The notes beneath the pieces were generated by a model, which made no database searches, was not told where the DNA came from, and saw nothing but the letters and a program-made list of their open reading frames with translations. This document shows, piece after piece, positions 5,256 through 44,144 of a stretch of DNA of 64,000 nucleotides. A program made the translations under genes and the position numbers. Within the stretch, counting starts at the first letter, position 1; the number at the start of each line of letters is the position of its first letter. The stretch is from contig CAWGMQ010000006.1 of NCBI GenBank assembly GCA_963823665.1, positions 1,120,001 through 1,184,000 of the forward strand, written 5' to 3'. The DNA comes from an uncultured Planctomycetota bacterium. Lineage in GTDB: Bacteria; Planctomycetota; Planctomycetia; Isosphaerales; Isosphaeraceae.

Positions 5256-5267
5256 GAAAACACGATC

Positions 5268-26696: not shown

Positions 26697-29591
26697 TCAT
26701 CGCTCGATCCGCAGGCCTGGGCACGCCTGCTGGAGCGCTGCAACGCCCGCCGCCGTCACCCCGACGCCTGTGATCGTCAACCGCTTCAGGTTTTTGAGCG
26801 CGACCAGTCGCGCCAGCCCGACGTCCGTGACCCGGGTCCCGCTCAGGTGCAAATGGACGAGTTTGTTGAGACCGATGACCAGCGACGCGAGCGCGGCATC
26901 CGTGACCTTGGTGTTGTTCAAGAACAGGACCTTGAGACCGTGCACGTTCTTGAGCGGCGCGAGATCGGAGTCGGTGACTTCGGTGTTCGCCAGGCTGAGC
27001 GTTTCCAGGCCGTCGAGCGCTTGCAATCGCGCCAGACCAGCGCCGGTGATCGGGAGGTTCTGGAGGTACAGGCGATCGAGGCCGGTCAGCCCGCTGAGAT
27101 GCGCCAAACCGGCGTCGGTCACTCTGGTTCCAGTGAGGTCCAGTGTCATCTTGCAGGTCAGGCCCCTGAGTGACACCAGCCCGGCGTCGGTGACCTTGGT
27201 CCCACCGAGGTTCAGATACAGGGTTTGGAGCCCACTCAGAATCCCTTTCAGATGCGCGAGCCCGGCGTCGCTGACGTCGGCACCGTCGCCCGTGTGGACG
27301 GGCCTGAAATCCTGGGCGATCCCGCGCGGGTCGAGGTTTAGCGATAAATCGCGCAGACCCGTCAGTCCCTTGAGGTGGGCCAGCCCGGCATCGGTCACGG
27401 TCGTCGAAACGATCACCAGGCTCTCGAGGTTCTTGATCGCCCCGGCGCGCGCCAGGTCGGCCTCGGACAGTTTGGCGCCCAGTTCGATATGCAACCCGGT
27501 TTTCTCGGGCTGCAAGTCACCCGCCTCTCTTTCGTTCACGGAATCGGCTTTGATGACCGCGCCGGCCTTCTTCGCAGCCTCGATGAACCTGGCACCATCG
27601 AAGATATCTTTCGGGAACTCGCCGGGCCTGAGAGGCGTGATCTCGATGCGCTGAGTGTACAGCTCGCCTCTGTCTTTGTCGTCCGGCTTCGGGACCATCT
27701 CGGCCTCCGCCAAGCTCCTTTGCCGCCGTAGCTCCCAGGCCGTGACGTACCACGCACCGCTCGCCAACTGCTTGAAGCGCACGGCGCGTCGATCGTTTCT
27801 GTCCCACTTCCCAGCGTTCTTTTGCCACTCCAGATGCCGGACTGCGATGAAGTCCCTCGCCGGGTCGATGGTGAACTCGTCTCGGAAATCTCCGCTCGCG
27901 GTCCTGATCGTGAGGCACCCTGGCGGAGTGTCGGCGAGCGGCGGAATGGCCGACACCTCGCTGCGGTTCCAGTGGGCGGCGGGCCAATCTGCCTCCATCA
28001 GCGCGGGCAGGCTGTCGAAGCCGCCCCGTAGCACCTTGATGCGGATTCGTGGCGGAATGCCCGACCCCAAGTAAGTGCGCATGCCGTCGAAGAGCCTGAT
28101 GTTGTTGGACTTGTCGTACGGGAACCACGCGGCAATCCGGTCCACCGGCAGATCGGATTGGCGGTCGCCGAGGAGGGCAATCTTGACGTCCTGCGGCAGG
28201 TCGGACAGATCCTGATGATCCGCGACCAAGTGTCGGGGACGGTGGTTGTGGAGGTCGAAGGTCGCGTCGCTCGTAATCTGCTCGCTCCAGAGCTGGATGA
28301 ACTCAGCGGAAGCAGACCAGTACTCGAGAAGGAGTCGACCTTCAAAGTCATAGGTCACCGCGCGGAAGTGCCGGGGGAATCGGCGGATCGCCGCGGCCTG
28401 CCCGGCGATCGCGCGCCGGACGTTCTGGGCCTGGTCGCCCCACTTCGACGACCGCTCGGTCTTCTCCTTTTCGACCACCGGCGTCCCCCTGGGGATCCCG
28501 AGGGCGAACAGGTCCCTCGGACCGTCCTCGGGATACTCGAACTCGGTGGTCGCAAACTCTTTCTTGAACTGATACTGAAGGGCGACCTCAAGGCGTTCGC
28601 GACGCCGGAACAGACGCTTCGTTTGCAGATCGAACCAGAACTGTTTCTCCAGTCTCGTCTGGCCGAGCACGTCGCGGCTGTACCGATCGGTACGTCCGTA
28701 GCTGCGGCCGCCGATGGTCTCGATATCGTAGTCCACGAAGGAATTGGTCTTGCGCTCCTGCTCAGTGGCGTGGCGTGGCAGCCCACGATAATAGCTCTCG
28801 TCCACTTTGAGTATGACGTCATAGACCGTGGGAGGAATGAGTCGGCCGTCGCGATCCGTTATGTAGACGTCGTCGGAGTCCTTCGTCTTGACGATCGATC
28901 CCCGGCCTTCATAGGTGTAACGGTCGTGTTTGATGATGTCGACGAGCGATACCTTGTCCGCCGCCTTCGTGAATTGCCGCCCGTCGTCCAGGTTGACCCA
29001 GACTTCCTCGCCGGTGTCGTTCCTGAGGTGGACCCACCGGACCCGAGCGGCGTCGGGCGCGGGCTCGGCCGTTTTCCCATTCGCCCCTGGCCGAGCCTGA
29101 GCGCCGGCCGGGGGGCCGTCGCGCTGGCCGGGAGCGGCGGCCCATGCCACGGTCAGGCCGGCGCCCGCGATCAGGAAGGCCGCGAGTTTCACGTGCTTGG
29201 TCCGTGTCATCGTCCGGAGCACGGCCGCGGCGAGCCGACCGGCAGGCGACGTCACCGGCAGCCCCGTAGCTGTCGCAGCTCGAGTGGCCGCTTCGACCCA
29301 GCCGGCCGGTATGGGACCGGTCCTCACCAGCGGTGTGGCAAGCGGGCCGACTGCGCCCGCAAGGCCAGACCGATCCAGCCGCCTCTTCAGACGCTCGTGG
29401 GCCCCGGCCAGCCGGCGCAGCGTCGCCTCGCCGCATCCCAGCTCCCGCGCCGCCTCCGACTGCGTCAACCCCTCCAGGTCGCACAGGACCACCGCCCGGC
29501 GCATGGCCTCCGGCAGCCGCGCGATCTCCTCGTGCAGCTCCGAATTCCAGCAATCCTCGGTTGCGCCGTATCGTCCTGCGATCGCATCCAT
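26697..29591 (-). CDS. ECF sigma region-4-only protein with membrane helix, unknown middle domain and C-terminal LRRs
   Basis: N-terminus 'LHEEIARLPE..RRAVVLCDLEGLTQSEAARELG' with no sigma2; C-terminal 'L.L.GT.VTDAGL.HL' repeats at about 26700-27480. Confidence 0.75.
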   Translation of the reverse strand: MDAIAGRYGATEDCWNSELHEEIARLPEAMRRAVVLCDLEGLTQSEAARELGCGEATLRRLAGAHERLKRRLDRSGLAGAVGPLATPLVRTGPIPAGWVEAATRAATATGLPVTSPAGRLAAAVLRTMTRTKHVKLAAFLIAGAGLTVAWAAAPGQRDGPPAGAQARPGANGKTAEPAPDAARVRWVHLRNDTGEEVWVNLDDGRQFTKAADKVSLVDIIKHDRYTYEGRGSIVKTKDSDDVYITDRDGRLIPPTVYDVILKVDESYYRGLPRHATEQERKTNSFVDYDIETIGGRSYGRTDRYSRDVLGQTRLEKQFWFDLQTKRLFRRRERLEVALQYQFKKEFATTEFEYPEDGPRDLFALGIPRGTPVVEKEKTERSSKWGDQAQNVRRAIAGQAAAIRRFPRHFRAVTYDFEGRLLLEYWSASAEFIQLWSEQITSDATFDLHNHRPRHLVADHQDLSDLPQDVKIALLGDRQSDLPVDRIAAWFPYDKSNNIRLFDGMRTYLGSGIPPRIRIKVLRGGFDSLPALMEADWPAAHWNRSEVSAIPPLADTPPGCLTIRTASGDFRDEFTIDPARDFIAVRHLEWQKNAGKWDRNDRRAVRFKQLASGAWYVTAWELRRQRSLAEAEMVPKPDDKDRGELYTQRIEITPLRPGEFPKDIFDGARFIEAAKKAGAVIKADSVNEREAGDLQPEKTGLHIELGAKLSEADLARAGAIKNLESLVIVSTTVTDAGLAHLKGLTGLRDLSLNLDPRGIAQDFRPVHTGDGADVSDAGLAHLKGILSGLQTLYLNLGGTKVTDAGLVSLRGLTCKMTLDLTGTRVTDAGLAHLSGLTGLDRLYLQNLPITGAGLARLQALDGLETLSLANTEVTDSDLAPLKNVHGLKVLFLNNTKVTDAALASLVIGLNKLVHLHLSGTRVTDVGLARLVALKNLKRLTITGVGVTAAGVAALQQACPGLRIER

Positions 29592-29608
29592 CTGAATACC
29601 CCCTACCG

Positions 29609-30961
29609 TCAGCGCGTCTCCGCGCCGGCGAGCGGACGATCGGCCATAAACCGGGGCTCGAGCTCGGCTGGCTCACCAGTCGGCTTCGGCGCGGTGCCGG
29701 GCTCGTAGAGGATCACCAAGCCGTCAACGTCGCGATCCACACGTCCGAGCAATCTCGTGAATGAATTCCGGTCTAGCGAGCGGTTAAGTGCGGAGAGACG
29801 ATAACCCGAGGAGGCGTAGCTACGATCGGCGAACGAGACCCACACCTTTGCCGACGTCGTGGGCACGCCGCGGAGCTCGAAGCGCCCATCGGCATTGACA
29901 GGGCAGCCGATCGAGTCCCAGTTCCAGTCACCCACCCCCACAAACACAACGGCGCCGTCTGGTACCGGCCGGCCGTCGGCGAACTCGATTCGCCCGGCCA
30001 CCTTGTGGCCAGGCTCGACCGAAATGTCACCCGCCTCGACCTCCACGGCGTCGGGGGCGACTTTCACGTGCCGCGGCGGAATCGCTCCGAAATTCTGCAG
30101 AGTCGCCATCGTAAAGAAGAGATCGTACTCGCCGTCTCGCGGGATGTTGTCGAACCGGAAGCGGCCACGGTCGTCGGTGGTTGCCTGCCAGTGGCCGAGG
30201 AATTCCGTTTTAATGGCCACGTCCTCCCCCGGCCGGCCCCGGTAAATAAGTTCCGGGGGGATTGTGCTTGTAGAACGCGGCTTGATGACCACTCCCTCCA
30301 GCGGCCGGCCCCGGTAGAGCACCCGGCCGGACATGGTGCTGCCCTCGTTGAGTCGTACGGAAGTCACCTCATCATTGCGCAGGGGCATGATGCGCGTGGC
30401 CAGGCCGGGCGCCTCCACTCGTATCGCTTCCGGCGCACCCACCAGAGAATCTTTGGCGTTCGACTTCACGACGAAGCGGCCCATCGCGTCGGTTCGTATC
30501 GGTTTCGGCCGCTTCCCACGCAAGCAGAGCGGCGTGACGGTGGCCCTTGCTACGGGTGACCCATCCGCGTCAAGAACCTGACCCGCGAACGTTCGCGTGC
30601 CCGCGGCCTTGGACGCCAGATCCTTGGCGTCCGGCGAAACACCCGAAACGGCCGCCGGCCTGTCGGAGACAGGAACGTTCCGTTCGTCTCGTCCGCCCTC
30701 TGGACGGGCGTTGGCCCAAGAATCGAGCGCCGAGCGCAGCTCCGCGGAATAGCGCAGCTTCTCGGAATGGAGGAGCGTCCCGATCTCAGTCTCGACCAGT
30801 ATCGAGCCGAAGGTGACGGACTCCGATAACGTGTTGACGGCCGCGATGGATTCGAAGACGACTGGGATCGCCATCGCCCCGTCGGGCTTCGCCTCGTCCG
30901 CCCTGTTGGCGAGGCCGGGCGGGATGATGGCGACGAAGGCTAGCACTCCGATGATCCGCAT
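29609..30961 (-). CDS. Secreted protein with carboxypeptidase-regulatory-like beta-sandwich repeats
   Basis: GAAGGAG RBS, 'MRIIGVLAFVAII'; 'GQVLDADGSPVARATV', 'TTDDRGRFRFDNIP', 'GRIEFADGRPV'. Confidence 0.8.
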   Translation of the reverse strand: MRIIGVLAFVAIIPPGLANRADEAKPDGAMAIPVVFESIAAVNTLSESVTFGSILVETEIGTLLHSEKLRYSAELRSALDSWANARPEGGRDERNVPVSDRPAAVSGVSPDAKDLASKAAGTRTFAGQVLDADGSPVARATVTPLCLRGKRPKPIRTDAMGRFVVKSNAKDSLVGAPEAIRVEAPGLATRIMPLRNDEVTSVRLNEGSTMSGRVLYRGRPLEGVVIKPRSTSTIPPELIYRGRPGEDVAIKTEFLGHWQATTDDRGRFRFDNIPRDGEYDLFFTMATLQNFGAIPPRHVKVAPDAVEVEAGDISVEPGHKVAGRIEFADGRPVPDGAVVFVGVGDWNWDSIGCPVNADGRFELRGVPTTSAKVWVSFADRSYASSGYRLSALNRSLDRNSFTRLLGRVDRDVDGLVILYEPGTAPKPTGEPAELEPRFMADRPLAGAETR

Positions 30962-31002: not shown

Positions 31003-34000
31003 TCATTCTTGTTCGTTCTTGGTGAATCGCAACGGTAAGTCCCGTGTTTCTCCCTCGGTAAGCTTGACGCGAGCGGACGCCTTGGAATTTCCGGGCGCCG
31101 TCGCGGCGATTTCAATTTCTTCGGCTGGCAGGACGAGCAGCCGAAGTTTCCCGTCGGTCCCTGGCGAGTGAGGTGGCGAAGAGTCGAAGACGACTCCGGC
31201 CGCTCGCATCTCGGCCTCGCGGACGTATCGGGCAGTCACTTTGATCTGTTCCGGGTGCGGCTCGCTCACGATGAACGAGATTGTGGTCATGCGATAGGGG
31301 CGGATCTGAATATCGGGGCGATCGGCTTCCACCCGGCCAAGATGATAGGCGGGACCGAATAGCTCGGGCGACTTCGAGTCGAGCCGGAACCGCTTGACCA
31401 TGTCGAGGACGAGGCCGTCGAGCACCAAGGTTGCGTCAGTCAGCCCTTTGGGCACGCGAACCGTGTACGTACCGGGTCGCTCGGCCGCGGCCGGGAACGT
31501 GTATTGGCTCGCCCATTCCACGCCGTGGTAGCTCCCTTTCACGGCGATCGCCGGCTCGGTCTGGTAGGCTGCCGCCAATGCGGCCGGGGCGCCACGAGGG
31601 GGTCGCACTTGCGCCCGGTCGGCCTCTGGACGGGCCTCGGGCAGCGGGCCGACCAGTGTCGCGGTGAAGCGGACGGACTCCACCGGGCGCAACGTCAGCT
31701 CGCGTACGGTTTGTCCGTCGCGGATGACGACGGGCACCGGTACATAAACTCCCGGCGCATCCTTGACCACGCTCGACGAGTCCTTGCCGTCCTCGGTCCG
31801 GTGAATGCCACCGACCTTGACCAGGTAAGTGCCAGGCGCGAGCCCGTCGCTCGCGAACCGACCCTCGTCGTCGGTCGTATAGACCAAGTTCGGCTGCGTG
31901 CCCGCGTCGGGCGTCGACGGTATGGTCATGCTGATCCACGGCACCGGCTTGCCAAGGGTGTCGACGACGAGGCCGGAAACCTTCTCGCCTCGGTGCACGC
32001 GTACGTCGCCAAGATCGGTCTGATCGGGGCGGACGTCGTGATAGATCCGCGCCGCCTCGCGGGTACGGAATTCCAGCTTGAGCGCTGTGTGGACGGGCAC
32101 CTTGGCGCGGAATCGGCCGTCCAGGCCTGTGACCGGAAGTTCCGCGTCGCGCGGCCAGGCGGCGAGGTCGTACTGTTTGTAAATAGGGACCTTGGGCAGC
32201 GGCTTGCCATCGGCGCCGAGCAGCCGGCCGGTGAGCGTGCGCGCCGCCAGAAGCTTTACGGCACGGAACGCGGGAAAGGTGTCCGAGATACCGTTCTTGG
32301 CGATCTCTCTCGTGTCGGCGATGTCGAAGTAGGTCACGTAGCGCGGGTGACTGATCGTGACCCGGAGCTCCAGCATTCGCCCGGGAGATGGCTCGGCGAG
32401 GTACTTCTCGGGCACCACGACGGTGAATCGGCCGTCCTGATCGGTCTTGGTCTTGTGCGAGACGAACAAATCGGTGACCGGATCCACTTCACCGTTCTCG
32501 TCGTTTCGCCGTTCGACACCCAAGGTGACAACGGCGCCGGCTACCGGGAGGCTGGTATCCCTGTCGACGGCCCGGCAGGCGATCGCGCGAGACGGTTCCA
32601 CCGGCGATTGAAGTTCAGTTGGGAAATTCTCCGGACCAGTCAGGTCTTGCAAGAATCGCTCGGGAGGCCACGCCTCCCACGTCATTCCCGCCATTCGGCT
32701 CGCCGCCGCGTTCCTCTTGAGCTTCCGGATTCCGTTCGATGAGTGGATGACCAGCCGGCCGTTTTTGACGACGCAGCCCAGTCCGAGTTGGTCGAGAAGC
32801 AGCCGTAGGGTCGTCCTGAGCGGCACGCCATCGAGATCCATCCGGATCGTCGAGTTGAGCGTCCTATGTGCTTCCTCAAGCCCGCTCGGGAACACGAGGA
32901 CCTCCATCGCTCGACCCTGGCGGGGGTCCTTGGGGACCCGCTTGAGGTACTCCAGCACATCCCCCAGCGGGGTACTGTTGGAAAACGGCATCCTGACCGG
33001 CTTTTCGAGCCGGGCCAGGAGCGCCTTGGTTTCTTGCGACGCGTCGCAGATCTCGACGGCGAGCTCCTTCCGCTCCCGCTGGATGCTCTCGGGATCGCTG
33101 ATGACGAGCACGTCGTCCTTGACCATGTAGGCCAGGCCCAGGGAAGTGAGTACCGTCGCGAGTATGTCCTTCAGAGGGAGACCCTTCTCGTTGATCTTGA
33201 CCCGCGCCATAGTCTTCCAGCTCAAGTCGACCACCGCCTTCTCATCGATGCTGAGCTTGGAGTCCAGGACCCCGGCCTCGAGAAGCCCTAATGGATCGAC
33301 GTAGATCGGGATGCCCGGATCGTTCGGCCCGTTCTTCGTCGCGCGCTTGATGTGCTGCAAGACGTCGTCCAGCGGGACCTCGCTGGGAAACTCCATGGCC
33401 ACGGGCTCTTCCAGCCTGGCGAGGATGGCCTTCGTGCGCGGCGTCATCTCGGAGGCCGGTGGTGGTTTTGTCGCAAGCGGCAACGGGAGCTCGCCTCCAA
33501 CATACGTCTTCAGCTTCCGGATGCCGTTCGATGAGTGGATGACCAGGCGGCCGTCCTTGACGACGCAGGCCAGTCCGAGCTGGTCGAGAAGCAGCCGGAG
33601 GGTCGTCTTGAGCGGCACGCCTTCGAGATCCATCTGGATCGTTGAGTTGAGCGTTGTCTCCGCCTCCTCGAGCCCACTCGGCATGACGAGGATCTCCAAG
33701 GCCCGATTCTGCGGAAGATCCTCGGTGGCCTGCTTGAGGTACTCCAGGACGTCTCCCAGAGGAGTATCGTCCGGAAACGGCATCTTGACCGGCTTCTCGA
33801 GCTGAGCCACCAACGCCTTGGTTTGCTGCGACGCGTCGCAAGCCTGGACGGCGACCTCGTTCCGCTGCCGCTCGGTGCTCTCCGGAACGCTGATGAAGAG
33901 CATGTCGTCCTTGACGATGTAGGCCATGCCCAGCGGCGTGAGCACTCGCGCAAGGGCGTCTTTCAGCGGGAGCCCCTTCTCGTTGATCGTGACCGTGGAG

Positions 34001-36582
34001 TCGAAGACCCCGGCCTCAAGGACCCCCAATGGGTCGACGTAGATCGGGATGCCCGGGTCGTTCGGCCCCTTGTTCGTCACCCGCTCGATATGTTGCAAGA
34101 CGTCGTCCAGCGGCACCTCGTCGGGAAACTCCATGGCCACCGGCTCTTCCAGCCTGGCGAGGATCGCCTTCGTCCGCGGCGTGATCTCGGCCTTCGGCGG
34201 AGGCGTCGACGCGGATTCGAATTCAACCCGTTTCGTCTCGCCCGGGCCGACGGTCGCATGAGTGGACGCCAATGTCCGCGCCTCGAGCTCGTCTGGTTTT
34301 CCGGGAACGCGCTCATCCGGACTCATCAGGTCGACTTGATAGTCGCCCGGGGCCAGATCGTCGAGTACGATTTCCGTTTGACCGGGTTTCAGCTCCCGAT
34401 CAACTTCGTCGATTGAGTCCTCGGATCCGATGACCTGGATCTGGCCCGCGCCGGCGAATGTCTTTCGATCGATGGTCACGATGATTCGGGCAGCAGGGGA
34501 GATTTTGATCTCGATCGATTCATTCTCTTCCTGGCGCTCCAGATGATCTGACCGACCCGGCGCGATGCCTTTCCCCCACCAGGCGAGCTCGACCTCGTCT
34601 CTCCTGGGGACCAGCGTGAACTCGAAGCGTCCCTGCGCGTCGGTCGCAGCTTGCAGGAAGCGAGTCACCGTGGACACCTGGGCCAACTGACGGCTTCGGA
34701 TCATGGCCCAGTTGAAAGGGAAGCTCCTGCGCTCTTTCGGATCGCGGTCCCGGGCGGCGAACAGCCGAAGTTGCGCCGCCACGACCGGGTTTCCCCGTGC
34801 GTCGACCAGCCGCCCGCGATATGTCCGAAGCTCCGCCGGATCGACCGGATCCAGCCGGAATTCCTCGACCCGTCCATCATCCGGTCTCGCGATGACGACA
34901 CGCTCCGTGACTTGCCGCTCGTAGCCCTGAGCCGCAACCATGACCTGGAGCGGCATACCGACGACCAGTTCCCCGAGCTTGAAGCGGCCATCGTTCGATT
35001 GAAACATCTCGCCCGGGTCATTGAGTCTGGCGAAGAGCCCGTTCGATGGCTCGCCGGGCTGCCGCCTGGGCGAAAACGTGATCTGAACGCGAAACGCGCC
35101 GATCGGCTTGCCCGTGCGCACATCGACCACTCTGCCAGCGATGACGCCGGCGGGGGCCATCGTGACGGAGACGACCTGATCGGTGTCGAGCGGTAGGTGC
35201 CGTTCCTCGATCGCCGAATAACCTTTCTTGGAGAAGCCGAACGGTGATTGCGCGGGAAGTGAATCGAATTCGAAGAAGCCGCGATCGTCGGTCGTCGCCC
35301 TACCGCCGTCGCTAAATGGGTCGTCGCCGTGTGCGAAGTCGACGCGAACGCCGGCGAGCGGCCGGCCCTTTTCGTCGTCGACGCGACCCTTGATCCGGTG
35401 CCCGGGCTCGAGGGTGATCGTGACCTCGGCGGGCCGGTTGGGTGGCCCCGGCTCGACCTTGAGACGTCTCGGCGCGGAACCCTTCGCCCGAACGAGAACT
35501 TCCTTGCCGACGGTCTGCTCCAACAGATCGTCCAGCCGGAACCGGCCATCCGGCCCTGTCTTCGTCTGGCGAACCATGGCTGACGACATACCCATGTTAA
35601 TTAAATCGGCGCCGGCGATCGGTTGTCCTTGGTGATCGAGGACCACGCCCGCGATCGAGCCCCCGTTGGGACGGGGCTCGTTTGCCGTCTGATTCTGCCG
35701 CGGTCTGGCTGCTGCTGCGGCTGGGGATCCGTCGCTTTGTCCGGGAAGGGCGGCCCAGGCCATTGCCAGACCGGCACTCGCTACCAAAAAGGCCAGGAGC
35801 TTCATTTGCCGGGCGCGGCTCATGGCCGAGAGCACGGCCGCGGCCAGCCGGCCCGCGGCCGACGTCGCCGCGTGTCCCAACCTCTCGGCCAACGCGGCGC
35901 GGGCAGCCACTTCGAGCCATCCAGGCGGTATGGGATCGGTCCTGACCAGCGGTGCGGCCAGCGGGCCGAGCGCGCCCGCTGAACCCGACCGTTCCAGCCG
36001 CCGCTTCAGACGCTCATGGGCCCCGGCCAGCCGCCGCCGCACTGTTGCCTCGCCACAACCCAGCTCCCGCGCCGCCTCCATCTGCGTCATGCCCTCCAGG
36101 TCGCAGAGGACCACCGCCCGGCGGACGGCCACCGGCAGCCGGGCGATCTCCTCGTGCAGCTCCGAATTCCGGTCATCACCCGCTGCACCGTCTCGTCCCG
36201 CGATCGCATCCATCTGTACCCCCTGGCGCTCTCGCGAGCGCCGGCGAGCGCTGTCGACGTTGGCCCGAACGGCGACGCGGTAGGCCACACGGTGCAGCCA
36301 ACCCGCTAGCGAGCCCTGGACCCGGAGCGAGCCAACCCGGCGGGCCAGGATGAGGAACGTGGCCTGGAAGGCATCCTCAACGTCACCCGGGTCGCGGAGG
36401 ACACCCCGGCAGACGGCCAAGGTCATCGGGCCGTGGCGAGCCACCAGTGCCGCGAAGGCATCCTCGTCTCGCTCGGTCGCGAACCGATCGAGGAGCGCGG
36501 CATCGGAGACTCCCGCGGCGGACCCGCCTGAGTAGAGACGCTGGATCTGCCGTAGGACGTTACCAAGGTGCATGCTGGCCAA
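31003..36582 (-). CDS. ECF sigma-70 factor with very long C-terminal extension (membrane helix, carboxypeptidase-regulatory-like and STN-like domains)
   Basis: 'SDAALLDRF...AFAALVARHGP...EDAFQATFLILAR' (sigma2), sigma4, membrane helix, then extracytoplasmic repeats; GGAGGAG RBS before TTG. Confidence 0.92.
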   Translation of the reverse strand: MASMHLGNVLRQIQRLYSGGSAAGVSDAALLDRFATERDEDAFAALVARHGPMTLAVCRGVLRDPGDVEDAFQATFLILARRVGSLRVQGSLAGWLHRVAYRVAVRANVDSARRRSRERQGVQMDAIAGRDGAAGDDRNSELHEEIARLPVAVRRAVVLCDLEGMTQMEAARELGCGEATVRRRLAGAHERLKRRLERSGSAGALGPLAAPLVRTDPIPPGWLEVAARAALAERLGHAATSAAGRLAAAVLSAMSRARQMKLLAFLVASAGLAMAWAALPGQSDGSPAAAAARPRQNQTANEPRPNGGSIAGVVLDHQGQPIAGADLINMGMSSAMVRQTKTGPDGRFRLDDLLEQTVGKEVLVRAKGSAPRRLKVEPGPPNRPAEVTITLEPGHRIKGRVDDEKGRPLAGVRVDFAHGDDPFSDGGRATTDDRGFFEFDSLPAQSPFGFSKKGYSAIEERHLPLDTDQVVSVTMAPAGVIAGRVVDVRTGKPIGAFRVQITFSPRRQPGEPSNGLFARLNDPGEMFQSNDGRFKLGELVVGMPLQVMVAAQGYERQVTERVVIARPDDGRVEEFRLDPVDPAELRTYRGRLVDARGNPVVAAQLRLFAARDRDPKERRSFPFNWAMIRSRQLAQVSTVTRFLQAATDAQGRFEFTLVPRRDEVELAWWGKGIAPGRSDHLERQEENESIEIKISPAARIIVTIDRKTFAGAGQIQVIGSEDSIDEVDRELKPGQTEIVLDDLAPGDYQVDLMSPDERVPGKPDELEARTLASTHATVGPGETKRVEFESASTPPPKAEITPRTKAILARLEEPVAMEFPDEVPLDDVLQHIERVTNKGPNDPGIPIYVDPLGVLEAGVFDSTVTINEKGLPLKDALARVLTPLGMAYIVKDDMLFISVPESTERQRNEVAVQACDASQQTKALVAQLEKPVKMPFPDDTPLGDVLEYLKQATEDLPQNRALEILVMPSGLEEAETTLNSTIQMDLEGVPLKTTLRLLLDQLGLACVVKDGRLVIHSSNGIRKLKTYVGGELPLPLATKPPPASEMTPRTKAILARLEEPVAMEFPSEVPLDDVLQHIKRATKNGPNDPGIPIYVDPLGLLEAGVLDSKLSIDEKAVVDLSWKTMARVKINEKGLPLKDILATVLTSLGLAYMVKDDVLVISDPESIQRERKELAVEICDASQETKALLARLEKPVRMPFSNSTPLGDVLEYLKRVPKDPRQGRAMEVLVFPSGLEEAHRTLNSTIRMDLDGVPLRTTLRLLLDQLGLGCVVKNGRLVIHSSNGIRKLKRNAAASRMAGMTWEAWPPERFLQDLTGPENFPTELQSPVEPSRAIACRAVDRDTSLPVAGAVVTLGVERRNDENGEVDPVTDLFVSHKTKTDQDGRFTVVVPEKYLAEPSPGRMLELRVTISHPRYVTYFDIADTREIAKNGISDTFPAFRAVKLLAARTLTGRLLGADGKPLPKVPIYKQYDLAAWPRDAELPVTGLDGRFRAKVPVHTALKLEFRTREAARIYHDVRPDQTDLGDVRVHRGEKVSGLVVDTLGKPVPWISMTIPSTPDAGTQPNLVYTTDDEGRFASDGLAPGTYLVKVGGIHRTEDGKDSSSVVKDAPGVYVPVPVVIRDGQTVRELTLRPVESVRFTATLVGPLPEARPEADRAQVRPPRGAPAALAAAYQTEPAIAVKGSYHGVEWASQYTFPAAAERPGTYTVRVPKGLTDATLVLDGLVLDMVKRFRLDSKSPELFGPAYHLGRVEADRPDIQIRPYRMTTISFIVSEPHPEQIKVTARYVREAEMRAAGVVFDSSPPHSPGTDGKLRLLVLPAEEIEIAATAPGNSKASARVKLTEGETRDLPLRFTKNEQE
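32705..34190 (-). repeat. Four STN/secretin-N-like domains arranged as a duplicated pair
   Basis: 'TPRTKAILARLEEPVAMEFP.EVPLDDVLQHI...GIPIYVDPLG' twice and 'TKAL.A.LEKPV.MPF...TPLGDVLEYLK...GVPL.TTLRLLLDQLGL' twice; long near-identical DNA stretches. Confidence 0.88.
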
Positions 36583-36819: not shown

Positions 36820-37965
36820 TCAGCGCCAGTCGAGTGCGTTCAACTCAAGCGCAGGTGGAAGGCGAAGAATTCGCCGAGACCAACCGCCGGCCTCGGAAAA
36901 GATGAAAAGCCGGGGATTGTTCCGGTGATCCATGGACCAGCTTTTCCGACCATCCTCAGAGTAGGACCACGTCTTGACCACGGCCGCGAGTTGCGTGCCG
37001 TCGCGCGACCAGCAGACGCCATCGACGTAGTTATCGTCGCTCTCCTCGTAGACCCTGCGGCGGTCGCGACCGTCGAGGGTGATCACATCCAGATTCCGCG
37101 TCTTGCCCTCGCAACTTATGAATGCGATGCGACGGCTGTCCGGGGAGAAGCGGGGTTCCACGTTCAAACCAGATTCGGTCAGCCGGCGCCTGCCCGTCCC
37201 GTCCGGATGCATGAGATAGAGCTGGTAGCCCTCTTCGCCGAGGCGGCTTCCGACCGACACCAACCACGACCCGTCGGGCGACCAGTCATGGACTTCCTCG
37301 GACTCGGGGATCGGCAGCTTCATCGCATTCAAGCCGTCGGAGTCGACCCGCCAGGTCTCGAACGCCCATCCGCCGCGCTTGAGGTCACCTCGAAAGAACA
37401 CGAGCTGCTTCCCGTCTTGCGACCAGATCGGATAGCCGCCGATATCGAGCATCTTGCGGCCCTCGCCGCCGCGGAGGCCGCGGACCCAGAGGGAGGTGGG
37501 ACGGATGTAATCGATCTTGTCGTCTTCGCTCGTGATGGTCTCGCTGTAGCAGTATGCCATTTTCGTGCCGTCCGCGGAGACCCGAAAGGACGACTGGTTG
37601 ATCTCCTCATCGAAGGGGGCAAGGACCTTGGTCCGGGTGTTCCTCTCGGGGTCGACGGCGTAGAGGCCCGGTGGCATCTCGTTGGCGTCCGCCGCTTTCC
37701 ACTCGGCGTACACGTAGATCGTCCCGTGGGCGGAGCCCGGGGCGGTTTCGTGCGCCTCGTCTCTTGCCGTCGTGATTCGGAGGGTTGGTAGAGCGGTCAG
37801 GGCCGCGCCGGCCAGGCCCAACCGCAGGGCCTCTCGCCGCGACAGCGTCAGCGGGACGTCGCGGATCGAGGAGATCTGAGCCATCCTCAATTTCCAGAAA
37901 GTGCTGAGGCTGGCGCAGCCCCCAGCATTCAGTGCCGTCGTCCAGGGTCCGAACAGGCCGTTCAT
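36820..37965 (-). CDS. TolB/PD40-like beta-propeller protein with a BlaR1-tail-like N-terminus
   Basis: Repeats SADG, WSQDG, WSPDG, FSPDS, WSRDG; AGGAG RBS before the ATG; N-terminus aligns to the post-protease segment of the M56 at 5268. Confidence 0.85.
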   Translation of the reverse strand: MNGLFGPWTTALNAGGCASLSTFWKLRMAQISSIRDVPLTLSRREALRLGLAGAALTALPTLRITTARDEAHETAPGSAHGTIYVYAEWKAADANEMPPGLYAVDPERNTRTKVLAPFDEEINQSSFRVSADGTKMAYCYSETITSEDDKIDYIRPTSLWVRGLRGGEGRKMLDIGGYPIWSQDGKQLVFFRGDLKRGGWAFETWRVDSDGLNAMKLPIPESEEVHDWSPDGSWLVSVGSRLGEEGYQLYLMHPDGTGRRRLTESGLNVEPRFSPDSRRIAFISCEGKTRNLDVITLDGRDRRRVYEESDDNYVDGVCWSRDGTQLAAVVKTWSYSEDGRKSWSMDHRNNPRLFIFSEAGGWSRRILRLPPALELNALDWR

Positions 37966-37976
37966 CGGTGTAACTC

Positions 37977-39032
37977 CTACGTGCCGAGGGATGCCGGGGC
38001 ATCGGCCCCGAGGGGAGGGTATGGGAACTCGTCATCAGCGCGGTTTTGCGCGGCGTCGCGGCGGGCGAGGGCCGCGTCAAGGAACACCGGCGGGCGGGAT
38101 GTAAGCGTCGCCACCTCGACCAGCGTGTCAGCGTACGCAGAGGCGCCCAGCCCGCCGAACGCGAGTGCCACGGCGTCGCAAGCCAGCTCTCGCTCCAGCC
38201 GGGTCTGCCAGGCGACCCAGTGAGCAACCGGATGGAAGACGTAGAGTAGCTTCGCGATCTCCGGGATCCACCCCCAGACCAGATCGCCGCGCCGGATGTG
38301 GGCCAGCTCGTGCAGTAGAACCTGGCGCCAGCGTGGAACGTTGAGCGCGCCGAGCAAGTCGCGGGGCAAGACGAGGGTTGGACGGCGCAGGCCGCAAACG
38401 AAGGGCGAGCCGCTCATCTCGGCCACAATCACTCGGGGTGGCGTTTGCAGGCCGATCCGGACCGATACGTCGTTCACCAGGTGATGCCAACGCGCGTCAT
38501 CGAGCGGTGAGGATCGCCGGATCACCGCGCCAAGCGCCGACCGCTGTCGCGCCAGCACAATAAGCCTCCAGGCCACCAGGCCGAGCCAGGTGAGGAACCA
38601 CCACGACCGCCAGGAGATATCCCACGCCCCAGCGGCAACTCTCGGCGCTCTTCCGGTCGCCGTTGCGGCGGGCATGCCCGCTTCCGCGAAAGGCCGGAGG
38701 TGTGTCATCGGCACGACCAGCCCGGTTACAGCCGGTTTCTGCTCAAGACGAACGTTCCCCGACAAGTCCGCAGCGCGAATGGCCATCATCGGGATCGCGA
38801 CCATCCACAGCGGCATCACCAGCATCTTGAGCGCCACGACCTGCCAGATCCAGTATCTGAGCGTAGGCGACGACCGGGCCAGCCGCCTCGCCAGAATGGC
38901 GACGAAGATCGCCAGGAGGGTTGACTGCCAGACCACCGCCTGAGCCAGGCCCGCCCAGGACTCCGACATGCGATTGAGTACCTCGACAAGCGACGACACA
39001 AGCGCCTCCGGGGCCGGGTTCATTCGGACCAT
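37977..39032 (-). CDS. M56 (BlaR1-type) metallopeptidase, protease core only
   Basis: 'RYWIW', 'SPFVCGLRRPTLVLP', HELAHIRRGD, 'FHPVAHW', 'ERELACD', 'YADTLV', then a short polar tail and stop. Confidence 0.92.
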   Translation of the reverse strand: MVRMNPAPEALVSSLVEVLNRMSESWAGLAQAVVWQSTLLAIFVAILARRLARSSPTLRYWIWQVVALKMLVMPLWMVAIPMMAIRAADLSGNVRLEQKPAVTGLVVPMTHLRPFAEAGMPAATATGRAPRVAAGAWDISWRSWWFLTWLGLVAWRLIVLARQRSALGAVIRRSSPLDDARWHHLVNDVSVRIGLQTPPRVIVAEMSGSPFVCGLRRPTLVLPRDLLGALNVPRWRQVLLHELAHIRRGDLVWGWIPEIAKLLYVFHPVAHWVAWQTRLERELACDAVALAFGGLGASAYADTLVEVATLTSRPPVFLDAALARRDAAQNRADDEFPYPPLGADAPASLGT

Positions 39033-39078
39033 AAGACCGCGACTGCGGAACGGCCGCAGTCAGGTGAGATGGCGTCCT

Positions 39079-39473
39079 TCATTGAGGGGGGCTTTTGCCG
39101 ATCTTCCGCGCGATGCTGCGGAGGGTGTCGAGGTCTTTGGCGGAGAGCCGGCCGCCTTCGGATTCGGCAAGATAGGCAGCGAGGGCGCCGGGAGATCCCC
39201 CGAGGACACCCTCGATGAACCGGCGGATCAGGGCCGGCAGGACACTCCGCTCCTCTCGGGTCGCCCGGTAGCGCACTGGCCCGGTCCCCGGTTCGCGCAC
39301 GAGCAAGCCCTTCGCCTCGAGCCTCTGCATCGTCTTGAGAACCGTCGTGCGGATCACCTGCCGGTCGGCCTGGATCAGCTCCGTGATTCTACGCTCCGAA
39401 CATGGTTGCTCGCGCAGACCAGGCGCAATACCTGGATCTCCATCTCCCCCAGTGAAGGTAATGACGTGCCCAT
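39079..39473 (-). CDS. BlaI/MecI/CopY family repressor (one frameshift near 39415)
   Basis: 'MGTSLPSLGEMEIQVLRLV' joins 'REQPCSERRITE...RTTVLKTMQRLEAKGLL...FIEGVLGGSP'; one added G restores a Trp codon. Confidence 0.9.
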
Positions 39474-39494
39474 ACTCAAGCGTCTCTCGCATCT

Positions 39495-39581
39495 TTACGG
39501 CACTTGCCGTCAACCTAGAGGGTTTTTACGGCAGGTGCCGTCAACCTGGTAGATCCTACGGCGACTGCCGTAAGCTGTCAA
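39495..39581 (-). promoter_or_regulatory. Sigma70-type promoter with three palindromic operators
   Basis: Minus-strand TTGACA (39581-39576), 17 bp, TAGGAT (39558-39553); TACGGCR-N2-TGCCGT palindromes at 39495-39513, 39526-39544, 39556-39574. Confidence 0.88.
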
Positions 39582-39724: not shown

Positions 39725-40350
39725 TCATCGGACGATCGATCGGGTCGTGAGCGTACAAGGTTTGACGCCTTCCTGGAGATCGGCACCATGTTCCAGAAGG
39801 GGCGAATCCATTGCCAGGAGCAATTGGGTCAGGTTCGGAAGCTCGGCAAGGTGGTGGAGGCCCGCGCCCGGTACGCCATCACCTTGGAGATCCAGCTCTT
39901 TCAAATCTCGCAATGGCTTGAGCATGGCGAGCCCTTCTGGAGAAAACCGGAAGGCACCGAACGTGAAACGGAGCGCCTTGAAATTGACCAGTCGGGCGAC
40001 TGACGCGAGACTTTGATCGGTCAACGAGCCATCTGAACCTCCGCCGCGCCGGCACCGTCAAAAACCAGGTTCACCTCAACCGCCGTGCGGAAGAAGTCGT
40101 CACCGATCGCGGCGCGGAGCCACGATGGCGCCCACGGCTGGCACCCGGATTTGTACGCGCCATTCACGTACTCATCGTCGTAGTGCACGAACCCGCCGTA
40201 TGCCTTCACCTGGGCCACTGCGCGCGCCTGCGTTCGCGCCCGGTTCACCTGCACGCCGAAAAATGCGGCGATCATGATCACGGCCAGAAGCATGGCCCGC
40301 ACGCTGAATTGAATCCACGATCGGCGCTTCTGTTTCGTCTTTGCGACGTC
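39725..40350 (-). pseudogene. Membrane-anchored LRR protein, frameshifted and apparently truncated
   Basis: 'QFSVRAMLLAV...RARTQARAVAQV..YGG.VHYD...PWAPSWLR..IGDDFF' then, in another frame, only two to three LRR units. Confidence 0.65.
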
Positions 40351-40729
40351 CTTACATCCTTCCTTGGGTGGTGTCGCTCGTCGATCCGCGGCGAAACTCG
40401 CTCGACCTCGAGAGTCCGGCCTCTGCACACCGGCCTATCGTCGCGCGCCGGATCGCCGGCGCCAACCCGGAATTGGCCGTTAGCGCGAGGCCATACGCGA
40501 TGGTGCGGACCGGAACGCATGCCGTTCAAGACGCGCTGACCATCGTCCTGATCTGCGAGGACGCGTTCGAGCTTGCCATGGCTCGCCATCACTGTCGCTG
40601 ACGAAATGCACGAGCCGGGGACGCTCACGAGCGAGACCGAAATGGCGCACAAAGGACGGCGCACCAGGTGCGCCGTCCCTCGTGAAGATTGATCAAGATT
40701 CGCAAATCTGGTTTTCTTGCGAGGAGGTC

Positions 40730-41492
40730 TCAGCCAACCTTGGCGAGCGCCGGCGCGTTCCGCGTGGCGGCCGCGGCTTCGACGAAAGCCTCGATCAATT
40801 GCGTGTCGAGGGAGATGTTTCCCTCGTTCTCGGGATGCCATTGCACGCCGGTGACCCACCAGCCCGGATCCCTGCCTTCGAAGGCTTCGATCAGGCCGTC
40901 CGGAGCCAGCGCCGCGGACGCGGAAATTCGGCGCGAGCTTGCGCACTCCCTGGTGATGGTAGCTGTTCACACGAATCTCGCCCGGGCCATAGATCTGCTC
41001 GAGCCGTGTTCCAGGCTGCATCACCACGGTGTGCCGATGAGCGCCCCCGTGCGGGTCGCGGTGCGGAATTGACTTGGGCATGTCCTCCGGCAGATGGACG
41101 TACAAACCACCGCCGCAGACAACGTTCAGTTCTTGCATGCCCAGACCGATGCCGAGCACCGGCATCTTCCGCTGCTGCACCATCCTGCAGAGCATGCGGT
41201 CGGAGAGCTCGCGGCGCTCGGGCACCAAGGTAACGGATGGATGCGGCGTCAGCCCCATCTTCCGCGGGTCGAGGTCATCGCCGCCGGTCAGCACCAGCCC
41301 ATCCAGCTTGTCAAGGATCGGAGAGAGGTCCGATTCCTTGATGAGCGGTGGAATGAAGATGGCCAGGGCGTTGGCCGTCATCAGGATTTCATAATAGCCG
41401 CTATGCAGGTAGCAATGCGGCGTCCGTCCCTTTGCGGGAGCACGGTAATCGGTGTTGATTCCGATCATTGGACGGTACTTCATGGCAGCCAT
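40730..41492 (-). CDS. Peptidase C26 / gamma-glutamyl-GABA hydrolase family protein (frameshift near 40920)
   Basis: 'RPMIGIN', 'LDGLVLTGG.DLDP', 'PVLGIGLGMQELNV', 'VNSYHHQGV', then 'APDGLIEAFE...GVQWHPE' in the next frame. Confidence 0.9.
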
Positions 41493-41602
41493 CCCCTCCT
41501 TGAAATGGACTCGGCGAACTGTTGTTCGCTCTGTTGTCTGCGTGGGATTTCGTACCCGATTGATCCGTCAATCACCTTGCACTTTTCCGGCAAGGGACGG
41601 CG

Positions 41603-41632
41603 AGTCTATCGAGAGCAGTTCAGGAATTTCAA
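41603..41632 (-). promoter_or_regulatory. Possible sigma70 promoter for the C26 gene
   Basis: Minus-strand TTGAAA, 18 bp, TAGACT, with an AT-rich tract upstream. Confidence 0.4.
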
Positions 41633-41837
41633 GCAAAAACCCGAGAGAATTCTGGATTTTTTTCGAAAAAGCCCTGCAATTGCAGTTTGGGAAGCCAGGT
41701 GAGCGATACGGAGCTTCCCAACTCGCGGCATTGCGAACGGGAATGAGCGCGACGCTCGTCACGAACCTCCGGAGGTTGGCAGACGAGCAGCCGCGTGCGC
41801 ACTTGCCTGTAATGGCGGAGCCCCGCTCGTGACTCCC

Positions 41838-43626
41838 TCAGTGCGCCCCGCCCGCTGTTACCGGCCTGGCGTAGTCGCCTTTGAGGTAGCGGATAAGCGT
41901 CTCCAGGTCGCTCGCGGTGATCTGGTCGTCGCCGAACGCAGGCATCTGACCTGGTAGCTTTGCGTCGAGAAAGCCGTATTTGTCGGAGCTTCGCGGGTTG
42001 CGGATCATGTGCGCGATCCACCAAGGCGATCCCCAGCCGAAAAGGTTTGGTGCCCTGCGCATTCCGCCTTTCGTCAGGCCCTCGATGACGTGGCAGGTGC
42101 CGCACTCCTCGACAAACGACTCGCGCCCCGCATGCGTGGCGATTTCGGGCGACTTGAGCCAGTCAACCGGTGTCATTCCTTCGGGAATCGCGGCGAATGC
42201 CGCGACGAAGTCGGCCACTTTGTCGAGATCCGCCGGCTCGAGCCCCGAGCCTTCTTTCCATTCCTTCATGCCGCCGAACTTTGTCTTGCCGAAATACGTC
42301 GGTGATACCGGGTTCTCCAGCAGGCCGCGAACCCACTGCCGCGTGCCGAAGTCCTTGAGGTCAGACGCGGTCTGTGTTCCAGTGCTTTTGCCTTCAAACT
42401 GGTGACAGCCCAGACAGCGCCGATCGAGAATGCTGCTGCCCTGGGAGAGCGGGTCCCGGCGCAGGATGTACACGACGCGCCGTCGGGCGGAATGCCCACG
42501 TCTGGCAGCCCGGCCAGGTAGAGTGCCCGCTGCCGGGCTGCGTCGGCGTTCTTTCGGCCCTGCTGGAACAACGCGTCTCGCCCGTCGTCGATCATCGCCT
42601 GTACCGTCAGGTAACCGGCCGCACCGACAACGCGCAAAGACAAAGCCGCACGCCAGGAAATGGGCCAGCTTCCGCGGCAAGCACGCGGTCAAGGAACGGC
42701 AGGAGCATCATCACGACCACGAGCGCAGTCGGGATGACAATCGTGCCGATGATCTCGCTGCTGCCCGGAAAGAGCTTGAGCATCTGGAAGAGAGACAGGA
42801 AATACCACTCGGGGCGAGCGGGGTAGTCTGAGCTGGCCGGGTCGGCCGGGGCATCCAGGTTGGCGCCGCCCTCGGCGAGCACGAGCACGATCACGACGCC
42901 CAGGACGAGGGCGGACGCGATCGTGTCCATGAAGAGCTGCTCGGGCCAGAACGTGGCGGTCGGGCGGTTCTCGGAACCGGCGGGTGCGGTGATGCCGTGG
43001 CGTCTGAACAGAGCGACGTGTGCGACCAGGCAAAGCACGAGCAGCACGGGCAGGAAGCCGACGTGAAGGCCGTAGAAACGGGTGACGGTCTGGTTGCCGT
43101 AGTCGGGGCCGCCGACGATCGTCTTCTGGAGGTACGGTCCGATTCCCGGTGCGCCGCCCATGATGTTGGTTGCGACCTTGGTGGCCCAGTAGCCTTTCTG
43201 GTCCCAGGGAAGCAGGTAGCCGGTCAGGCTGAAGCCGAGTGTCAGGAAGAGGAGTGCCATTCCGAACCACCAGTTGAGCTCGCGCGGCCGGCGATAGGCG
43301 CCGGCGATGAGCACTTGAAGCAGGTGCAAGACCAGGAGCACGACCATGGCCTGCGCTGCGAAGTGGTGCACGCCGCGAATGAACCAGCCGCCCCACATGT
43401 CGTGGCTGATAAAAAAGACGCTGCCCCAGGCCGTCGACGACGAGGGGCTGTACGAGGTCATCAGCAAGAGCCCGGTGAAGACCTGGACCATGAAGATCAC
43501 CGAGAGCGCCGAGCCGAAGACGTAGCGCCAGCGAGCGCCGCCGGGTATCGGCTCGTCGAGCGCTTCGTGCATGAGATGGCGGTAACCGGTCCGGTGATCG
43601 AGCCAGTCAGCCAGTTGCTTAAACAA
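41838..43626 (-). CDS. petB: Cytochrome b/b6 plus subunit IV fused to a diheme cytochrome c (frameshifts around 42480-42690)
   Basis: 'GWFIRGVHH', 'TGYLLPWDQKGYWA', 'RFYGLH', 'ARPEWYFL'; downstream CLGCH and CGTCH heme-c motifs. Confidence 0.9.
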
Positions 43627-44144
43627 GGGGTTGCTGCTCCTCGCTCTGGGTGCGGAACCGCTCGAACTTGACGCGGACCTCGGGGTCATCGCCCTCGGTC
43701 AGCTCGACCTTGAGGCGATCCATCGGCCGCGGGGGAACCGGGTTGGTGGGCTTTCCTTCGAAGTCGAACGAGCTGGTGTGGCAGGGGCAGAGGAACCCCT
43801 TCTTGTCGGCCGAGAGATTGATGGCACAGCCCAGGTGCGGGCATTCGGACGTGAAGGCGATGACCGGCGGACTCGGCTTCCTTGGGCTGGCGGATGAGCC
43901 AGACCGAGCCGACCGGCTCGCGGGGATATTTCACCCAGGCGTCGCGCCGGTCTTTGATGATCGCGAACGAGCGGGGAACTCCCGCGTCGAGCTGGCTGAG
44001 CCGAGTGAGCGTCTCGAACGATCCTTCGCCTTCCTTCTTTCGCAGTGGAGAGACCACATACGCCACGCCGGGCACGGCCAGCACGAGCCCCATCAAGCTG
44101 CCGACGGCCATGGTGGCGTATCGGTAAAAGTCGCGTCGGGTCAT
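43619..44144 (-). CDS. petC: Rieske 2Fe-2S protein (frameshift near 43870)
   Basis: Tat-like 'TRRDF', membrane helix, then CPHLGC and CPCH motifs in the next frame; stop overlaps the cytochrome b start. Confidence 0.9.

Follow-up and report, generated by a model that had tools for sequence, protein, structure and literature searches.

The window is a stretch of 64,000 nucleotides (nt) from an uncultured soil planctomycete of the Isosphaeraceae. On its minus strand, a BlaI-family repressor gene is followed by the gene of a short M56 membrane protease (351 amino acids, aa) and then by the gene of a PD40 propeller protein (381 aa), which we call the module. The sequence data show three linked genes, an N-terminal module that is conserved as a stand-alone unit and carries many different outer domains, and a tandem operator that is shared. 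We read the protease and module genes as a BlaR1-type receptor, the kind of membrane signalling protease that turns on antibiotic resistance in Staphylococcus, encoded in two pieces. The module protein likely both completes the protease in trans and plugs it, and it is likely an exchangeable input half for a BlaI switch that regulates itself. We give this reading a probability of about 0.7. The genome holding the window (16.46 Mb in 12 contigs, 91.9% complete) has 36 M56 matches, and the named homologues of the locus proteins are planctomycete (Tautonia, Singulisphaera, Isosphaeraceae, Gemmataceae, Pirellulales).

The features are listed below in the direction of transcription, each with its basis; a slash marks a cleavage position.

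39553..39581, minus strand: site resembling a sigma70 promoter, TTGACA-17-TAGGAT, which operator copy 1 overlaps (pattern search, 1 found against 0.7 in shuffles)
39557..39572, minus strand: predicted BlaI operator copy 1, palindrome [GT]ACGRC-N4-GYCGTA (sequence; tandem copies in 22 of 23 loci)
39527..39542, minus strand: predicted operator copy 2 (sequence)
39496..39511, minus strand: predicted operator copy 3 (sequence)
39079..39473, minus strand: BlaI/MecI/CopY-family repressor gene, frame broken near 39414 (Pfam PF03965, homologue N-termini, X1 contig)
39169..39183, minus strand: putative repressor cleavage site L-A-A-Y/L with hydrophobic P4 and P1' (analogy with BlaI Asn101/Phe102 in PMC9834060, MecI profile offset, homologue conservation)
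37977..39032, minus strand: short M56 membrane zinc protease, ending after helix a8 (Pfam PF05569, 105 bits; best Foldseek match BlaR1, 8EXP-8EXT)
38298..38312, minus strand: HELAH zinc motif, H241-H245 (sequence)
38175..38189, minus strand: ExxxD motif E282-D286, predicted partner of module Arg27 (sequence, co-fold)
37980..38102, minus strand: variable, low-confidence protease tail, almost missing in some homologues (homologues, model)
37974..37978, minus strand: AGGAG ribosome-binding site of the module gene (sequence)
36820..37965, minus strand: module gene, encoding docking peptide, a9 helix, hydrophobic helix and beta-propeller, 381 aa (Pfam, homologues, model)
37930..37953, minus strand: FGPW-T-T-A/L, conserved anchor and predicted P4-P1' cleft-binding segment (alignment, co-fold)
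37873..37908, minus strand: predicted a9-equivalent helix LSTFWKLRMAQI, with Arg27 at 37885-37887 as the Arg294 equivalent (co-fold, alignment, model)
37765..37842, minus strand: SRR, hydrophobic helix (predicted a10 equivalent) and possible signal-peptidase site (alignment, model; peptidase site by analogy with BlaR1 Gly331)
36823..37728, minus strand: PD40/TolB-like beta-propeller, predicted extracytoplasmic (Pfam, model)

The gene junction and the short protease

The assembly carries indel errors, and an artefact at the protease/module junction therefore needed excluding. At 39414-39415, blaI is one base short of the otherwise identical contig of run X1, a deletion that is likely an assembly error; it frameshifts the called open reading frame (ORF, 39079-39513), and the start that resembles those of homologues is the ATG at 39473. 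Six other M56 genes among 30 loci of the genome, judged by eye, end early and out of frame as well. The junction itself is covered by X3 only among runs X1-X5. There, a short-read contig of a relative (depth 4) spans 37710-38087 with substitutions and zero gaps (21 substitutions, gap-free, over 37860-38087), and these independent reads keep the two genes in two frames.

A sequence-only reading of the window had described an M56 gene that stops without the KRRI helix, last membrane helix and sensor, next to a gene in another frame with its own ribosome-binding site overlapping the M56 TAG and an in-frame stop upstream. The coordinates and motifs agree: AGGAG at 37978-37974 overlaps the TAG, the module ATG is at 37965, and the in-frame stops before it end 66 nt upstream. 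The two frames proved a stable part of this layout, the position of the TAG did not. In the X3 relative and in P0002 it is AAG, which moves the protease stop five codons on, to a TGA overlapping the module ATG, the frames still differing.

HELAH (at 241) and ERELACD are both present in the M56 ORF, which runs on for 46 aa past YADTLV (111 residues past the HExxH start) and stops without a KRR helix or last membrane helix. Its HExxH and ExxxD zinc motifs are invariant in 136 split homologues, as are D247 and Y297, the equivalents of BlaR1 Asp210 and Tyr261; alignment to 8EXP and a Foldseek match (E 8e-7) place it in the membrane gluzincin fold. The protease model has a long flexible segment at about residues 90-135, where BlaR1 has extracellular loop 1 (EL1). 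In a search limited to 193-615 aa, 118 of the 120 best M56 homologues (self included) end 72-121 aa after HExxH. Longer, fused relatives surfaced in other searches, nine in all and none with the GPW motif of the module. Homologues are thus mostly split, not always full-length fusions. Among 130 distinct short protease tails, none has a KRR-type motif, one has a hydrophobic run of 8, and in none were the a9 helix with Arg294 and the last membrane helix found in the same chain; the next gene carries them. The tail of the window's protease, 37980..38102, is likely what remains of a former cis loop. A locus scan with a single protein gave no match.

Module family, operator and distribution

Module homologues share the N-terminus M-x3-[FY]GPW..LSTFWKRR..RR..hydrophobic..LPT. 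A profile of this peptide retrieved 456 clusters (50% identity) at E<=0.001; in the best 150 of the 456, GPW is present in 148, Met four residues before F/Y in 144 and HExxH in 0. In a Pfam scan of 104 newly retrieved members, each 200 aa or longer, 43 matched 11 Pfam types and 61 matched none. The types are PD40 (12), CarboxypepD_reg and LTXXQ (8 each), WD40 (4), SecDF head, FGE, LRR and STN (2 each), and HEAT, PQQ and Secretin_N (1 each). As the sequence-only reading had anticipated, the motif recurs at protein N-termini, on varied domains, beside short M56 genes (22 loci). Strong conservation of the peptide starts at Met1. Of 25 module genes, 23 have GGAG before Met1 and 6 have it before position 28, where only 12 have a Met; translation from the later Met (MAQISS), with an unconserved peptide before it, does not describe these genes.

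In an alignment of 191 modules selected on GPW (hence GPW in 191/191), 189 retain Arg27 and 185 have I/L/M at position 12, position 11 being variable; in 185, the spacing from GPW to W-x-x-R is 16 residues. RR stands at residues 43-44, before the hydrophobic helix, in 152 and is missing in 39. Signal-peptidase-like sites follow the hydrophobic helix. The propeller clade has an S/T-R-R motif and a weak hydrophobic region, and one of 23 proteins matches Pfam TAT_signal, slightly below its cut-off. The module model consists of a helix at 22-35, a helix at 43-58 and an all-beta domain; residues 1-16 modelled alone have low confidence. No penicillin-binding sensor domain was found in the window module, which has a PD40 propeller and scores 61 bits against a cut-off of 400 for NF000326, and no transpeptidase match appears among the best five families of each of the 104 modules.

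Upstream of blaI lie three palindromes [GT]ACGRC-N4-GYCGTA, about 31 nt apart, the first within the TTGACA-17-TAGGAT site; as read from sequence, these are predicted operators over a promoter. The promoter-like pattern is weak alone given its frequency in shuffles, and the same layout can be seen by eye before stand-alone modules. Because the operator pattern was derived from the window and stand-alone module promoters, these lend it no independent support. In 22 of 23 loci the tandem operator heads the locus, with no further occurrence on that strand inside it, and both new loci found through the operator alone (2/2) hold BlaI-short protease-module systems.

The three-gene layout recurs. Behind a BlaI-type repressor, 22 loci have a short protease and then a separate module gene, and near-complete genomes are among their carriers; the BlaI-family gene is upstream of the protease in most loci. 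Protease and module genes are separated by -37 to +71 nt in 18 measured loci, with all three relative frames represented (10, 4 and 4). When clade loci were found through the protease alone, seven of eight were split and one was fused. Within the family, modules occur in 13 of 121 genomes and the operator pattern likewise in 13, 12 of them shared (reversed control, 1). A phylum-wide peptide search gave 4 of 401 genomes with 15 candidates scored per genome, which is not a prevalence figure. An operator match in genome G462 was rejected as chance in low-complexity GCC repeats, and the peptide matches at L074 and L075 are not modules.

Several modules may accompany one protease. Tandem modules are found at L064, L065, L080 and L273, and stand-alone module genes with the operator directly upstream at L066, L067, L069 and L071. 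Five genomes have tandem or extra modules with one protease found in each; G456 has three modules, and G453, G645 and L080 have two in tandem. In genome G000 the peptide search found no second module, and in G487 a module and a protease fragment were found, with no operator or BlaI. The earlier suggestion that one protease could pair with interchangeable modules is borne out to the extent that tandem and stand-alone modules lie under one operator; we infer both that modules are actually exchanged and that the outer domain is the sensor.

At L067, L069 and L071 the same long gene (start MxRVLL[IV]NMPFSSLRWPALG) lies directly behind the stand-alone module. We take it to encode a B12-binding radical SAM (S-adenosylmethionine) protein, and it is a candidate co-regulated output. 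Between the two tandem modules at L064, the region L064:6089-6130 contains a perfect inverted repeat pair.

Predicted complex and comparison with BlaR1

In Staphylococcus aureus BlaR1, helices a9 and a10 are swapped between protomers, and Arg294' of one chain bridges to Asp246 of the other; the loop L280-S-H-S283/F284 is cleaved in cis, the site being blocked before and after the cut, and the protein is shed through a signal peptidase cut behind a10 (PMC9834060). The module has counterparts of exactly these parts, a loop, a9 and a10, and then an outer domain. Co-folding protease residues 1-320, zinc and module residues 1-63 gave a score of 0.79 against 0.00 for the best control, with runs agreeing in at least 80% of contacts and a partner pLDDT (predicted local distance difference test) of at least 76; among solved pairs 116 of 157 attain this mark and among mismatched pairs 2 of 215, figures that apply only roughly here. 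The closest pairs, in P0001 numbering (351-aa ORF numbering minus 3), place module R27 near E279, L280 and D283, and W8-T10 near Q160, L164, the edge strand F208-C210 and H242.

In this model, module helix 20-31 would replace BlaR1 a9 and bring Arg27 onto the ExxxD motif, the hydrophobic helix would replace a10, and residues 5-12 are predicted to occupy the cleft, where W8 would be P4 and L12 would be P1'. That register fits, since position 12 is I/L/M in nearly all modules, position 11 varies and Arg27 is almost always kept. The hydrophobic position 12 behind a variable position 11 appears to match the BlaR1 loop, and the sequence pattern, together with the predicted docking, is consistent with BlaIR-type loop cleavage at a hydrophobic P1'. 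The invariant GPW presumably substitutes for the covalent link that keeps the loop in place when BlaR1 is one piece. Docking of the peptide in the HExxH cleft, which the sequence-only reading had suggested checking, is what the co-fold predicts. Its proposal of a regulatory loop supplied in trans agrees with the co-fold and with conservation, and had missed the Arg294-equivalent residue, the swapped helices and the operator.

The system resembles S. aureus BlaR1/BlaI and MecR1/MecI in its membrane gluzincin fold, HExxH, ExxxD and Asp210/Tyr261 equivalents, adjacent repressor, loop with hydrophobic P4 and P1', a9 arginine, and last membrane helix followed by an outer domain. BlaR1, however, is one chain that cleaves itself in cis and swaps a9/a10 in a homodimer, whereas here a separate gene holds loop, a9, a10 and outer domain, the GPW anchor is new, the penicillin-binding domain is missing and several modules occur per protease. 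Because a9/a10 are not in the same chain and the penicillin-binding domain is not present, we regard it as a two-gene system that works like BlaR1/BlaI, not as a BlaR1 member, and a beta-lactam role is not implied. Most M56 proteins have no beta-lactam sensor (PMC13492132). BlaI paired with an M56 protein lacking one is also the arrangement in Clostridioides difficile CenIR (PMC13492132), Pseudomonas aeruginosa PvmSR (bioRxiv 10.64898/2026.08.03.742534) and mycobacterial BlaIR as cited there; these are single-chain proteases, and a separate gene for an a9/a10 subunit is not described in the accessible parts of those sources. One-piece M56 receptors of planctomycetes (e.g. window 5256-7091) have similar outer domains, and the same propeller is fused in P0065, P0184 and P0402, but they are fused and have no GPW; in the tree, the split proteases group with their closest fused relatives in a separate branch. 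The propeller shares PD40 repeats with TolB, yet scores 61 bits against a TIGR02800 cut-off of 343 and matches no TolB N-terminal domain; the 'TolB' labels of homologues are automatic. No description of a split BlaR was found in the literature searched, where most subscription papers lay outside coverage.

Structures of one protein are still the basis for arguing how an outside signal releases the active site of BlaR1 and what purpose its domain swap and its self-cleavage serve. A natural two-chain form separates protease from plug, a9 and sensor, so that each could be mutated, titrated or exchanged alone. It would also explain hundreds of planctomycete proteins labelled TolB or hypothetical and offer a 63-residue adaptor with which modular membrane sensors could be built in laboratory strains, and it shows a partner gene for some short 'sensor-less' M56 proteins.

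Mechanism, rival explanations and history

In the mechanism we propose, the protease without a module would be poorly active and would need the module for completion. The module would supply both an active-site residue (Arg27) and the blocking loop, and the protease would stay blocked as long as the intact loop or its cleavage product occupied it. Once the outer domain binds a ligand or is shed, the protease would be free to cleave BlaI; the operon and the stand-alone module genes would then be induced, and more of all parts would be made. We lean slightly towards a broader, many-to-one version, in which interchangeable subunits, each with the arginine, a GPW-anchored cleavable plug and its own outer domain, complete an incomplete protease in trans from genes spread genome-wide under one operator. 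In this version, gene fission at the BlaR1 domain-swap boundary would have taken place two or more times, with at least one reversal.

Several results weigh against a module-completed, sensor-driven switch. The system is patchy, with the operator pattern in 13 of 401 genomes of the class. Genome G410 (95% complete) has two near-identical modules with operators, and no protease or BlaI was found in it; in G413, blaI, a frameshifted protease locus and an intact module lie on three contigs with an operator at each, so that blaI and the broken protease are apart. Under the tandem operator, neither an unrelated gene nor a separate effector gene was found, and G000 shows no enrichment of single operator sites (7 per strand, control 14-15); for these two reasons the outer domain may itself be the output. 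The co-fold may pass by likeness, not binding, since BlaR1 is solved and halves of split genes tend to pass. The contact pairs come ranked by expected error and not from coordinates, which leaves the cleavage register a prediction; in the model a shift of one residue would put Ala11 at P1' and leave the loop uncleavable. Co-evolution of the cleft residues with GPW is unsupported: fused relatives keep these residues too.

The most serious rival keeps the two-chain complex but takes the outer domain as output, so that the switch would keep track of how the module is supplied, exported or turned over and would set the amount of a periplasmic protein. The tandem operator was found only before the system's own genes, bar one low-complexity chance match, the outer domains are highly diverse, RR before the hydrophobic helix (152/191) is followed by signal-peptidase-like sites, and BlaR1 itself is shed by signal peptidase (PMC9834060). 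One-piece M56 receptors with equally varied outer domains are nevertheless read as sensors (PMC13492132), and the protease retains the flexible segment (~90-135) where BlaR1 has its sensor-contacting EL1; we consider this rival unlikely, though worth keeping in view. It is less probable still, indeed doubtful, that the short protease works alone like a sensor-less BlaR and that the module N-terminus is a long, Tat-like (twin-arginine translocation) signal peptide of an exported protein. The S/T-R-R motif with its weak hydrophobic region, the single sub-cut-off TAT_signal match and the G410 modules, for which no protease was found, would suit such a peptide, whereas GPW and W-x-x-R at fixed spacing (185/191) are unlike signal peptides, RR is missing in 39/191, and fused relatives attach the same segment directly to the protease. 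Sensor-less P. aeruginosa PvmS and Mycobacterium abscessus BlaR, moreover, keep the Arg294 equivalent (bioRxiv 10.64898/2026.08.03.742534), which the tails here do not.

Two further explanations concern the gap between the genes. Programmed frameshifting or read-through to a fused protein might be suspected where the stop overlaps the ribosome-binding site or start, as in several loci, but the wide range of gaps in all three frames, and second and stand-alone modules without a protease directly upstream, make it very improbable. Still less credit goes to an assembly error or a recent pseudogene of a one-piece receptor. The genome's indel errors (blaI and the six early M56 stops among 30 loci) invite the idea, yet the independent contig is gap-free over the junction, split loci number 22 and include near-complete genomes, module genes have their own ribosome-binding site in 23/25, and GPW was found only in the separate form; homologue data refute this reading. 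The split is real and widespread, not an assembly error.

As to the history of the preferred two-gene receptor, a first tree (148 columns) was poorly resolved. In a second, quick tree of 58 rows hand-chosen from ~330, split proteases and fused relatives form one branch against 17 other M56 proteins (Shimodaira-Hasegawa-like approximate likelihood ratio test, SH-aLRT, 95). Three fused forms without GPW nest inside split lineages (support 98-99), which suggests re-fusion; a split-only clade is not rejected in the approximately unbiased (AU) test (p 0.08), and re-fusion of split receptors is likely, not shown.

A second, unrelated group of short M56 genes lies at L084:5979-6933, L187:4706-5615, L195:4748-5666 and L228:4646-5564. 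These end L-[IV]-G-V-A-stop, within the predicted autocleavage loop of their fused sisters (LRLIGVVESK..RI), and stand upstream of an addB-like gene, three of them with a gene of 1200-1340 aa upstream. No GPW module or BlaI of the split clade was found at these four loci.

The module-type propeller is also fused to extracytoplasmic function (ECF) sigma factors (P0176-P0179, P0183). Next to the locus, 238 nt behind the module gene, window 31003-36582 (minus strand) encodes 1859 aa with an ECF sigma factor, a membrane helix, CarboxypepD_reg and STN-like repeats; the relative's X3 contig skips 443 and 315 nt of it. A long frame at 26697-29672 (minus strand) has a start like that of this gene, without its N-terminal part in frame, and is possibly a frameshifted paralogue. 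On the other side, 40278-43689 (minus strand) holds what we take to be a cytochrome b6-like region and a glutamine amidotransferase-like gene, and the genes there look frameshift-broken, consistent with long-read indel errors.

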